The notes beneath the pieces are model-generated. The model made no database searches. It saw nothing but the letters and a program-made list of their open reading frames with translations, and was not told the origin of the DNA. Both the position numbers and the translations under genes were made by a program. A stretch of DNA of 37,404 nucleotides from Oscillospiraceae bacterium (GTDB lineage: Bacteria; Bacillota; Clostridia; Oscillospirales; Oscillospiraceae): contig JASDTK010000026.1 in the NCBI GenBank assembly GCA_041891555.1, forward strand, positions 1-37,404, in the 5' to 3' direction. Shown here one piece after another: positions 16,634 through 18,619 of this stretch. Every line of letters starts with the position of its first letter. Position 1 is the stretch's first letter.

Positions 16634-16682
16634 CACAGCAAGGTAAGTTGCAGAGCTATAAATTACCTTGCTGTGCTTTTAC
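16634..16682. terminator. Intrinsic terminator between convergent genes
   Basis: A 13-bp perfect stem (CACAGCAAGGTAA 16634-16646 paired with TTACCTTGCTGTG 16663-16675). CTTTT follows on the plus strand, and the flank on the minus strand is T-rich. Confidence 0.75.
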
Positions 16683-16706: not shown

Positions 16707-17843
16707 CTATTCCACAAGCCTCACAGTCATTTTCGGGAGACAGCTAAGGTCGTCCTCTCCGGAAGTAATCCTTATCGAGCTGCCGTTAAAGTTCAGGACT
16801 TTCCCGATGACCCTTCCGTTTATTGTCTGGTTTGAGCCGTTCATCATGATTGTGCCGTTTGGAGCGTAAACAAGCCCTTCCAGCTGGATGCCTGAGCCGT
16901 TAATCGTTATGTTTCCGCTTTCCGAATAGAAGCATACCGAATCTTTTGAGGAATACATCAGATTACTTCCGTTAAATGTAATACTGCCCGACACCAGAAC
17001 TACGCCGCTGCCGGTGAAGTCGCTTCCGTTGACGGTTAAGCTGCCCTTTACATATATGGGAGAATCAACGCTTACCCTGCTGCCGTTAAAGGTCTTGTTT
17101 CCGTTGTATGCCTGTCCCGCTGCCTGAGCCTCGGCCTGTATTGCTTCGGAAAAGTCTGGCATATCGATTATGGGCGCGGCGCTGAAGACTTTGCTTCCGA
17201 TATTGATGCCGCTGCCGTTTACAGTAATAGCCGCGGCCTGGCATGCCCCTCCGACAGTAATGCATGAACCGTTCATAGTAATGCTGTTTACGGCTTCGAC
17301 CGAGCCCGTAATGTTTTGAGAAGAGCCATACATATTGAATTTGTAGTTTGAATGAACGTTACCCTTGATATATTGGCTGCTTCCGTTTATGGCCAATATG
17401 TCGGAGCTGCTGCCCGAAAAAACCGTATAGTTGAACGGACCTGTGTTCATACCCGTTTTTTCCGCAACAGAGCTTGCCAATATGGTTTTGCTGTGTAAGC
17501 CCAGAACAGTTGCTATTGTATAGCTGACCGTTCTTGTGCAAACGACCTCAATTTTTTCGGAATCACCGTTAAAAGGAGCGGAGACCGCTATCTCGGAAGC
17601 CAGCATTCCGTTTTGTTCGGCGAGTTTAACCGCTGTGCTTTTAGCTGCGGAGCTTGACGGCAAATCCTGCGCTCCGCCCAGGGCCGCCGAATCTGCGGCA
17701 GTCTGCAGCCGATCTTGTTCAAGAGAAATTCGCCCCAAGTCAATTGCCAGCGCGGATCCCGCGCATAAAACTGCAAAGACCAATACAAATATCACCATAG
17801 ACTGGCCGGCTTCGTCTTTAAAAAGCTTAAATTTTGATACCAT
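16707..17843 (-). CDS. TadE/TadG-like N-terminal domain protein with a C-terminal NGS-repeat (beta-solenoid-like) region
   Basis: The N-terminus reads DEAGQSMVIFVLVFAVLCAGSALAIDLGRISLEQDRLQTAADSAALGGA, as in Flp-pilus TadE/G-like proteins. There are nine [IL]T[VFIM]NGS units. GGAGG-N6-ATG precedes the gene. It is monocistronic, sitting between a riboswitch terminator and a gene-end terminator. Confidence 0.75.
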   Translation of the reverse strand: MVSKFKLFKDEAGQSMVIFVLVFAVLCAGSALAIDLGRISLEQDRLQTAADSAALGGAQDLPSSSAAKSTAVKLAEQNGMLASEIAVSAPFNGDSEKIEVVCTRTVSYTIATVLGLHSKTILASSVAEKTGMNTGPFNYTVFSGSSSDILAINGSSQYIKGNVHSNYKFNMYGSSQNITGSVEAVNSITMNGSCITVGGACQAAAITVNGSGINIGSKVFSAAPIIDMPDFSEAIQAEAQAAGQAYNGNKTFNGSRVSVDSPIYVKGSLTVNGSDFTGSGVVLVSGSITFNGSNLMYSSKDSVCFYSESGNITINGSGIQLEGLVYAPNGTIMMNGSNQTINGRVIGKVLNFNGSSIRITSGEDDLSCLPKMTVRLVE

Positions 17844-17916
17844 AAAAAACCTCCGGTAAACAGCATTGATCAGTATCCAACATCGTCATTCTGATTTTCA
17901 CCCAAAAAGCAGGAAT

Positions 17917-17946
17917 AAAAAAAGTCGTTCAGGTTACCTGAACGAC
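17917..17946 (-). terminator. Intrinsic terminator forming the riboswitch expression platform
   Basis: The minus strand reads GUCGUUCAGGU-A-ACCUGAACGAC (11-bp perfect stem, 17924-17946) followed by U7 (17917-17923). It lies between the aptamer and the RBS. Confidence 0.85.
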
Positions 17947-17971: not shown

Positions 17972-18060
17972 ATTTTCGGCAACCGGCTGTCATAGTCTTT
18001 ATGACCTTAGACCCTTGGCTTTGCGTCCCTGTCTTTCGGCAGGTTTGCTATTATCGACCT
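17972..18060 (-). promoter_or_regulatory. c-di-GMP-I (GEMM-I) riboswitch aptamer
   Basis: Minus strand: AUAGCAAACCUGCCGAAAGACAGGGACGCAAAGCCAAGGGUCUAAGGUCAUAAAGACUAUGACAGCCGGUUGCCGAA. It shows GCAAACC, a GAAA-capped hairpin (CCUGCC/GACAGG), the invariant GGGACGCAAAGCC (18017-18029), a second hairpin (GUCAUA/UAUGAC) and a closing CAGCCGGUUGCC. Confidence 0.85.
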
Positions 18061-18089: not shown

Positions 18090-18118
18090 AAGATATATGC
18101 GAACCGGACATCTGTCAA
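18090..18118 (-). promoter_or_regulatory. Possible promoter for the riboswitch transcript (TTGACA-N17-TATCTT)
   Basis: -35 TTGACA at 18113-18118 on the minus strand. The -10 candidate TATCTT at 18090-18095 is imperfect. Confidence 0.35.
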
Positions 18119-18169: not shown

Positions 18170-18619
18170 CTATTTCCGCATTTTTTTAAAAAATTGTGAT
18201 AAAAGTGTGGTACAATCATCCTCTAGAACGCCGGAATATACAGCCGGACGATGACCGTAACGCTCGGAAAAGAGATCGATGACGCTGCCACAGGAGCCGA
18301 AGCTTTCCTCTCTCGCGCCGAAAACAACGCGGGGTATGCGGGAATTTATTATCGCGCCCGCGCACATCGGGCAGGGCTCAAGCGTCACATAGATAGTGCA
18401 GCCCTCTAGCCGCCAGTCTCCGATATTACGGCAGGCCTCGTCAATTGCCACAAGCTCCGCATGGCCCAGAGCGGAACGAGTGCGCTCGCGGGTATTCGCT
18501 CCTCGGCCAATAATCTCGCCGTTTTCATTTACGATAACACAGCCTACGGGGATCTCGCCGGCCCTAAAGGCTTCCAGTGCCAGTTCAAGCGCAAGGCGCA
18601 TATATTTTTCGTGTTCCAT
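18170..18619 (-). CDS. tadA: tRNA adenosine(34) deaminase
   Basis: CDA zinc motifs HAELVAI and PCPMCAGA. Length 149 aa. Confidence 0.92.
   Translation of the reverse strand: MEHEKYMRLALELALEAFRAGEIPVGCVIVNENGEIIGRGANTRERTRSALGHAELVAIDEACRNIGDWRLEGCTIYVTLEPCPMCAGAIINSRIPRVVFGAREESFGSCGSVIDLFSERYGHRPAVYSGVLEDDCTTLLSQFFKKMRK

Follow-up and report, generated by a model that had tools for sequence, protein, structure and literature searches.

A candidate TadG-class minor pilin with a beta-helix head, encoded away from its tad operon behind a c-di-GMP-I riboswitch in an Oscillospiraceae genome

Tad pili are widespread colonization organelles whose tip contents are only now being worked out, through proteins such as CpaL and KilN. 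CpaL/TadG consists of a pilin module and a vWA domain; predictions place it at the tip, together with two small minor pilins (PMC12607857). The Kil Tad pilus of Myxococcus has four alternative tip complexes, the backbone being a large TadG-like protein, KilN, with a modular C-terminal domain (PMC12075869), and the alternative tip sets are encoded at separate loci (PMC12075869, PMC12607857). For ComZ, a pilin joined to a beta-solenoid, the structure has been used to argue that the pilus tip is the only place where it fits (PMC6561018). Here we describe a gene from an Oscillospiraceae bacterium (assembly GCA_041891555.1, contig JASDTK010000026.1), contained in a stretch of 37,404 nucleotides (nt) that was analyzed as a whole and is called the window below. 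The gene lies at 16707-17843 on the minus strand, encodes 378 amino acids (aa) by open reading frame translation of the window, and stands behind a riboswitch of the cyclic diguanylate (c-di-GMP) type I class. With a probability of roughly 0.6, its product is a TadG-class modular minor pilin of a Flp/Tad (type IVc) pilus, carrying a beta-helix head at the tip and repressed together with the tad operon when c-di-GMP is high. Most likely the gene belongs to a known machine from which it has become detached, rather than forming a new system of its own.

The likeness to TadG of Aggregatibacter, CpaL of Caulobacter crescentus and KilN of Myxococcus xanthus lies in genes that occur in tad loci beside TadE-type minor pilins and in a predicted role as the backbone of a tip or priming complex (PMC12075869, PMC12607857). 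Unlike those proteins, the one described here has a DUF7305 beta-helix as its C-terminal module instead of a vWA domain, its gene is detached from the operon and carries its own riboswitch, and it is known here from sequence alone. The host also differs, being a member of the class Clostridia and presumably single-membraned; no secretin is obvious at the loci, though no search was aimed at secretins. PilB and PilC of Streptococcus sanguinis and the tapirins of Caldicellulosiruptor are comparable as pilus-associated proteins of Firmicutes with an adhesive module, and the C-terminal domains of tapirins are beta-helices that appear among the fold matches given below. However, these proteins belong to type IVa systems and carry different modules (vWA, lectin), and tapirins are not known to have a pilin module.

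Domain searches and structure prediction agree on the layout of the protein. A short polar leader (residues 1-13; 17805..17843, minus strand) ends in Gly13 at a prepilin-peptidase-like site, KDEAG/QSMV, the slash marking the predicted point of cleavage. Residues 14-135 (17439..17804, minus strand) make up a pilin-like module, recognized by Pfam Tad, Tad_C and AlphaFold2, in which an alpha-1 helix (residues 12-58) is followed by a small alpha/beta head. Residues 136-378 (16710..17438, minus strand) form a beta-helix of about 10 coils of about 19 residues, each with an x-T-x-N-G-S corner, as indicated by DUF7305, AlphaFold2, Foldseek, the repeat register and conservation. Pfam Tad (PF13400) matches residues 13-60 with an E value of 2.3e-10 (41.1 bits against a cut-off of 22.3), in support of the TadE/TadG-type N terminus claimed in the original prediction, which had been made from the letters of this stretch. 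DUF7305 (PF23981) matches residues 256-356 (E 3.5e-8, 34.0 bits against a cut-off of 27). The combination of Tad and DUF7305 is found in all 30 aligned family members and Tad_C (PF09977) in 21 of the 30. The protein fits the modular minor pilins TadG, CpaL and KilN (PMC12607857, PMC12075869), contrary to the earlier view that it could not be matched to a characterized system.

The AlphaFold2 model, built with an alignment of homologues, has a predicted local distance difference test score (pLDDT) of 87.9 and a predicted template modeling score of 0.71. It shows a long helix at residues 12-58, a small alpha/beta head at 64-130 and an all-beta body at 140-376; the pLDDT of the beta-helix is mostly above 85, with one inserted helix at 232-241. 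The best Foldseek match in the PDB is ComZ of Thermus thermophilus (6qvi; E 1e-4, probability 1.0), with template modeling (TM) scores of just 0.26-0.39, followed by beta-helical ice-binding proteins, tapirin C-terminal domains, pectate lyases (weak) and bactofilin. Model and matches bear out the C-terminal beta-solenoid that had been suggested. The resemblance to ice-binding proteins exists at the level of the fold alone, as DUF3494 gives no Pfam match at E values up to 1, and no PDB chain is matched at the sequence level at E up to 1. What the protein may share with ComZ is a pilin framework with a large beta-solenoid. ComZ differs in belonging to a type IVa pilus and not a Tad pilus, in having no detectable sequence similarity, and in binding DNA via lysines, whereas the beta-helix here is acidic (isoelectric point 5.1, 12 Lys/Arg against 15 Asp/Glu).

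Nine NGS tripeptides are present, at residues 153, 191, 209, 253, 272, 291, 315, 335 and 353, so the nine repeats originally reported stand; in 20,000 composition-preserving shuffles the mean was 0.40 and the count never exceeded 5. A tenth, degenerate copy, YGS172, reads NGS in 23 of 30 homologues, and the motifs of the C-terminal part line up at a period of about 19 residues. With one Asn-Gly-Ser corner in every coil, the simplest reading of the motif is a structural turn. N-glycosylation of these sequons, which the original prediction had raised, was considered and rejected: neither a GT41 (PF13844) nor an STT3 (PF02516) match is found in the genome, which is 86% complete, and the once-per-coil position points to a turn. 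Conserved motifs of the beta-helix include MPDFS, VCFYS, YAPNG and NGR. Its C-terminal half, with the last three of these, is the best-conserved part, and no diversifying selection was seen on the beta-helix.

A database search returned more than 444 related proteins; among the 120 listed, nearly all have the same length and architecture, and where the source gives a name it is TadG or TadE/TadG family pilus assembly protein. We fetched 79 related loci, and the counts of tad genes refer to those within the fetched flanks. At least one tad machinery gene is present in 36 of the 79 and at least three in 31. In one layout the order is TadV-Flp-TadE-homologue-CpaB-TadZ-CpaF-TadB-TadC, in some cases with a tandem riboswitch ahead of it, as seen in Acetobacterium bakii DSM 8239 and at loci L041 and L045, with the Flp-to-CpaB part also at L069; here the homologue occupies the TadG slot, between TadE and CpaB. 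In a second layout the homologue comes last, as TadZ-CpaF-TadB-TadC-DUF192-DivIVA-like-homologue, and Chlorobi have a third. The two genes that separate TadC from the homologue encode a DUF192-like protein of about 108 aa and a coiled-coil, DivIVA-like protein of about 290-355 aa, in all four inspected loci with an intact gap (L030:4561-5967, L079:4603-5998, L057:4539-5894 and L044:4672-5891). The homologue stands alone in 25 of the 52 loci with full flanks, and 22 of these 25 genomes have a CpaF orthologue elsewhere (41-92% identity, at least 57% in 20). Pseudobacteroides cellulosolvens DSM 2933 is a cultivable carrier of a stand-alone homologue.

The gene was originally called an orphan and its product self-contained. 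The window, as was also stated at the time, holds no further tad gene. Elsewhere in the same genome, however, contigs C129 and C100 together contain a complete Flp/Tad locus, the sole such locus in the assembly (351 contigs, 86% complete), and it lies behind the c-di-GMP-I aptamer most similar to that of the gene studied. On C129 the aptamer (C129:331-415) is followed by a TadV-type prepilin peptidase, Flp, TadE, a second TadG-like protein and CpaB, and the locus continues on C100 with TadZ, CpaF, TadB and TadC. The search of the genome for tad loci and a prepilin peptidase that had been proposed as a check thus finds both. Six of the assignments are confirmed by Pfam (Peptidase_A24, Flp_Fap, TadE, Tad, T2SSE, T2SSF). 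Together with the homologues in tad operons and the CpaF genes that accompany stand-alone copies, this removes the grounds for calling the gene an orphan. The in-operon TadG-like protein shares the pilin module (29% identity between residues 10-127 and its residues 13-142, E 1e-6) and ends in a different C-terminal domain of mixed alpha/beta fold (pLDDT 86.6), the model of which has no fold match in the PDB. Because the two proteins have the same pilin module and different heads, they are probably alternative or complementary tip modules. Two further clusters, on the 4-kb contigs C108 and C111, encode CpaB-like proteins, ParA/MinD-like ATPases and CpaF-like ATPases, the latter with 31-33% identity to the tad CpaF, and C111 adds one membrane protein; these could represent additional type IV filament systems or reflect strain variation in this metagenome-assembled genome (MAG).

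The leader site resembles those of recognized Tad subunits. Gly13 is invariant in 30 homologues, and KDEAG/QSMVIF parallels the sites of Flp (ESG/QGMVEY) and TadE (EKG/QATVEF) in the same genome, and position +1 is Gln in 69 of the 113 homologues scored. By its leader, then, the protein resembles a substrate of the prepilin peptidase that would process Flp and TadE, and cleavage is predicted. Position +5 is Leu, Ile or Val, and Glu in 0 of the 113, so the G/XXXXEY pattern of TadV-processed pseudopilins of the Flp/TadE/TadF type is absent; for lack of Glu+5 the protein is filed as TadG-type and not as TadE/F-type. Glu+5 is the residue by which ordinary type IV subunits dock onto the subunit above, and its absence is typical of the fiber-capping subunit in other type IV filaments (GspK-type pilins).

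The c-di-GMP-I (GEMM-I) aptamer of the riboswitch, at 17975..18059 on the minus strand, is a full-length match to Rfam RF01051 with 78.4 bits against a gathering score of 35; it lies upstream of the gene on the same strand, and the 132 nt that separate it from the ATG contain a terminator with its U7. The gene is monocistronic, as first described, bounded by the riboswitch terminator upstream and a hairpin with a 13-14-bp stem downstream. Five c-di-GMP-I aptamers are found in the genome. Those of the gene studied and of the tad operon share 80% identity, against 57-63% between either of them and the other two strong aptamers. The remaining three lie at C255:1050-1136(+), C155:6458-6544(-) and C153:16633-16716(+). 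One of them precedes CheW and a methyl-accepting chemotaxis protein, another a 450-aa protein that by eye resembles a cNMP-binding plus zinc-ribbon protein, and a weak one (40.6 bits) a 999-aa protein that by eye resembles a PLD/helicase, beside two integrase-like genes.

A covariance model made from nine aptamers was used to scan the 79 loci. The original prediction had asked whether homologues are always preceded by this riboswitch, and they are not: a same-strand upstream aptamer is found in only about 10 of the 79 loci, and directly ahead of a stand-alone copy in 4 of 25 (L015, L016, L029 and L039). Tandem pairs of aptamers occur at four loci, ahead of homologue-bearing tad operons in L034, L041 and L045 and, in L054, ahead of a Flp gene and the homologue, downstream of the machinery genes. 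The genomes of L015 and L016, both close relatives, have a second riboswitch about 4.6 kb upstream of CpaF, which in the L015 genome is directly followed by peptidase, Flp and TadE genes. The two-riboswitch layout of the genome studied recurs in the close relative G151. L015 and L016 also share a syntenic block with the window, namely LepA, MntP, tRNA deaminase, riboswitch, gene, phosphoribosyltransferase, CinA and ThiI. Within this block the gene studied is the most divergent, with 79-80% identity to L015/L016 against 81-97% for its neighbors. Of the 18 genomes that both the aptamer and the CpaF search covered, 7 have a riboswitch on the same strand 4.5-6.5 kb upstream of CpaF. The link between riboswitch and Tad pilus is therefore recurrent, not universal.

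Other Firmicutes c-di-GMP-I riboswitches, for example Cd1 upstream of flgB in Clostridioides difficile, have the same aptamer class followed by an intrinsic terminator, and Cd1 works with OFF logic. A tie to pilus and chemotaxis genes, as seen here, is also on record, GEMM elements having been listed upstream of cpaA and cheW in 2007 (PMC1950547); on the riboswitch together with a TadE/Flp pilus, our literature search found nothing beyond that list of gene families. The present case differs from known c-di-GMP-I riboswitches in that one machine has sister aptamers on two unlinked transcription units, namely the tad operon and an outlying TadG-like gene, with a direction of switching that is predicted.

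This direction can be approached by folding the leader. The intrinsic terminator (17917..17946, minus strand; 10-bp stem, UAA loop and U7, from sequence and folding) is self-contained and starts 28 nt past the aptamer. Transcript folding points to an antiterminator made of the aptamer 3' strand, GGUUGCC (17978..17984, minus strand), and the terminator apex, GGUAACC (17932-17938, minus strand). In a transcript cut at 17932, before the terminator 3' arm, the lowest-energy fold pairs these two segments; in the full leader the terminator state has -41.8 kcal/mol and the forced antiterminator -39.3, a difference of 2.5. In the leader of the tad operon, GGUUGCCGAA is repeated in the terminator 3' arm, which on its sequence reads as a textbook OFF layout. 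The leaders of L039, L041 (both aptamers), L054 and CheW have unrelated terminator stems, each with a stretch complementary to the aptamer 3' strand. Such complementarity is present in seven leaders in all, with duplex energies in the lowest 0.5-8% of shuffles. Given the nascent fold, the close energies of the two states, the GGUUGCCGAA repeat and the complementarity across leaders, we consider it likely that the leader is an OFF switch, terminating transcription at high c-di-GMP. An ON switch, with c-di-GMP inducing both the gene and its tad operon in the manner anticipated for an organelle of adhesion, seems to us rather unlikely. It would agree with the general tendency of c-di-GMP to favor adhesion and with the first GEMM designs described, which were ON-type (PMC1950547), and the greater stability of the terminator at equilibrium leaves room for an unseen ligand-dependent antiterminator. 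However, the terminator is self-contained, stands apart by those roughly 28 nt and draws its 5' arm from outside the aptamer 3' strand; in seven leaders that strand is instead complementary to the 5' arm or apex of the terminator. In addition, the nascent fold yields the antiterminator only with an open aptamer, and the same design is found on the chemotaxis genes of this genome.

From the domains, fold, riboswitch and genomic links, which are established, we infer processing, tip location, an adhesin role with a ligand for the beta-helix, and the direction of switching in the following way. The protein would be anchored in the membrane, perhaps trimmed by the TadV-type peptidase encoded on C129, and would join TadE in the priming complex of the Tad machine of C129/C100. 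It would then reach the pilus tip, where the bulky beta-helix could make contact as an adhesin module. In the ligand-free state, GGUUGCC of the aptamer 3' strand would pair with GGUAACC and RNA polymerase would read through; with c-di-GMP bound, the aptamer would close and the terminator form. Since the tad operon carries the most similar aptamer of the genome with the same logic, gene and machine would be repressed together when c-di-GMP is high.

Several points weigh against this reading. The riboswitch is scarce among the related loci, as counted above, and one genome with a riboswitch-controlled stand-alone homologue (L029, a Candidatus Limiplasma MAG, G156) has no CpaF match at E 1e-80 or better; its tad locus is either divergent or missing from the MAG, or the copy works without one. 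The antiterminator helix is just 7 bp, each leader taken alone is only modestly better than shuffles, and an OFF switch on an adhesive pilus contradicts the usual link between c-di-GMP and adhesion. Placement at the tip is argued by analogy, and members of the DUF7305 family have so far been met as sequences only. The leader site is without the Glu or Phe at +5 of the published processing consensus G/A-X4-F/E (PMC12607857), which makes cleavage uncertain, and TadG of Aggregatibacter was long treated as a membrane protein of unknown role (PMC6916266). These last observations lead to an alternative in which the protein is a TadG-like assembly factor, an unprocessed bitopic membrane protein with its beta-helix in the wall space that assembles or anchors the Tad machine and never enters the fiber. 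The lack of Glu+5 in 113 of 113 homologues would suit such a factor, as would the listing of TadG as a cytoplasmic-membrane component of unknown function (PMC6916266), and the association of homologues with tad operons fits it as well as it fits a tip protein. We nevertheless think it improbable: the leader is close to the Flp and TadE sites of the genome and its Gly is invariant, the overall shape is like that of ComZ, TadG has been reported in Aggregatibacter pilus preparations while CpaL and KilN are modeled at tips (PMC12607857, PMC12075869), and paralogue arrays of two or three copies are easier to explain as exchangeable surface modules.

The match to ComZ also raises the idea of a DNA receptor on a Tad-type competence pilus, a functional analogue of the Thermus protein. 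ComZ is the best structural match and binds DNA (PMC6561018), but the acidic beta-helix (isoelectric point 5.1), the missing sequence relation and the co-occurrence of the module with carbohydrate-binding and Ig-like domains, which points to adhesion, make this very unlikely. Hardly any weight remains for an independent membrane-anchored surface protein outside the Tad system, possibly N-glycosylated, which would be either a fiber, in line with the original prediction, or a beta-helical enzyme such as a polysaccharide lyase. The gene is indeed unlinked to tad genes in the window, as are its homologues in 25 of the 52 fully flanked loci; pectate-lyase folds occur among the weak matches and the protein has 15 N-x-S/T sequons. 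Yet the Pfam Tad domain is present in every aligned homologue, homologues lie within tad operons, 22 of 25 genomes with a stand-alone copy have CpaF, the tad operon of this genome bears the sister riboswitch, and the NGS corner is simplest as a turn in a genome, 86% complete, with no GT41 or STT3 match. A minor pilin of the Tad pilus, placed at its tip and repressed with its operon, accordingly remains the reading we prefer.

The beta-helix itself is found well beyond this genome. Scanning residues 140-378 against 1.84 billion representative proteins gave 1,010 matches at E up to 1e-3 and 64 at 1e-30, and the family comprises more than 1,000 clusters at 50% identity. Many of the matches are far longer proteins, and those scanned add Big_2, CBM_X2, legume-lectin, CBM_2, PKD, vWA or TSP3 domains, an extracellular setting related to adhesion or carbohydrates. 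The distribution is patchy within the organism's own taxonomic order (5 of 151 genomes); DUF7305 occurs in one copy in the genome studied and in none of 14 model genomes, and our search of the literature found no mention of it. Tandem paralogues with 29-46% identity to the query are seen as three copies at L051, L056 and L082 and as two at L019, L027 and L090, which suggests diversification of the module.

Much of this locus is familiar: its domain architecture is catalogued, its riboswitch class is well known, and a link of that class to cpaA dates from 2007. What the locus adds is an unstudied, widespread family of putative tip modules and the paired-riboswitch arrangement. The DUF7305 family may be a common and unstudied beta-helical type of tip in anaerobic Firmicutes and Chlorobi, and the paired riboswitches provide a simple, testable example of how expression of an unlinked accessory gene is coordinated with that of its machine. 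Should the OFF logic prove correct, cells would build these pili when c-di-GMP is low, in contrast to the type IV pili of C. difficile, and their role would have to be read differently. Taken further, and only tentatively, the DUF7305 beta-helix could be an undescribed class of Tad tip module that in this lineage became detached from the operon and was given a copy of the operon's c-di-GMP-I OFF riboswitch, yielding a swappable tip synchronized by riboswitches, with Tad pili belonging, along with chemotaxis genes, to the low-c-di-GMP state of a motile, exploring cell.

The remaining features of the locus can be given briefly. A sigma-70-like promoter, TTGACA-17-TATCTT, precedes the riboswitch at 18090..18118 on the minus strand; it comes from a consensus scan with 10 of 12 matches and is a pattern match only. 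A ribosome-binding site, GGAGG, was read from the sequence at 17850..17854 (minus strand), 7 nt before the ATG. When the minus strand is folded, the downstream hairpin (16634..16675), between convergent gene ends, shows a stem of 13-14 bp closed by a 16-nt loop, and the stretch around it has a folding free energy of -25.1 kcal/mol. The run of U residues is poor when read on the minus strand and slightly better when read on the plus strand; the hairpin is therefore probably a bidirectional terminator shared by the two convergent genes. The gene upstream of the riboswitch (18170-18619, minus strand) is by eye a tRNA adenosine deaminase, TadA, with HAE and PCxxC motifs; the name is shared with the Tad pilus ATPase TadA, a different protein, and may mislead. 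In the genome of L039, a Syntrophomonadaceae MAG, four c-di-GMP-I aptamers stand in direct tandem with a spacing of 256 nt (L119:1501-2354, minus strand), an array of unusual length in that it goes beyond two aptamers. The gene downstream of it encodes 455 aa, beginning with a hydrophobic segment that resembles a signal peptide.

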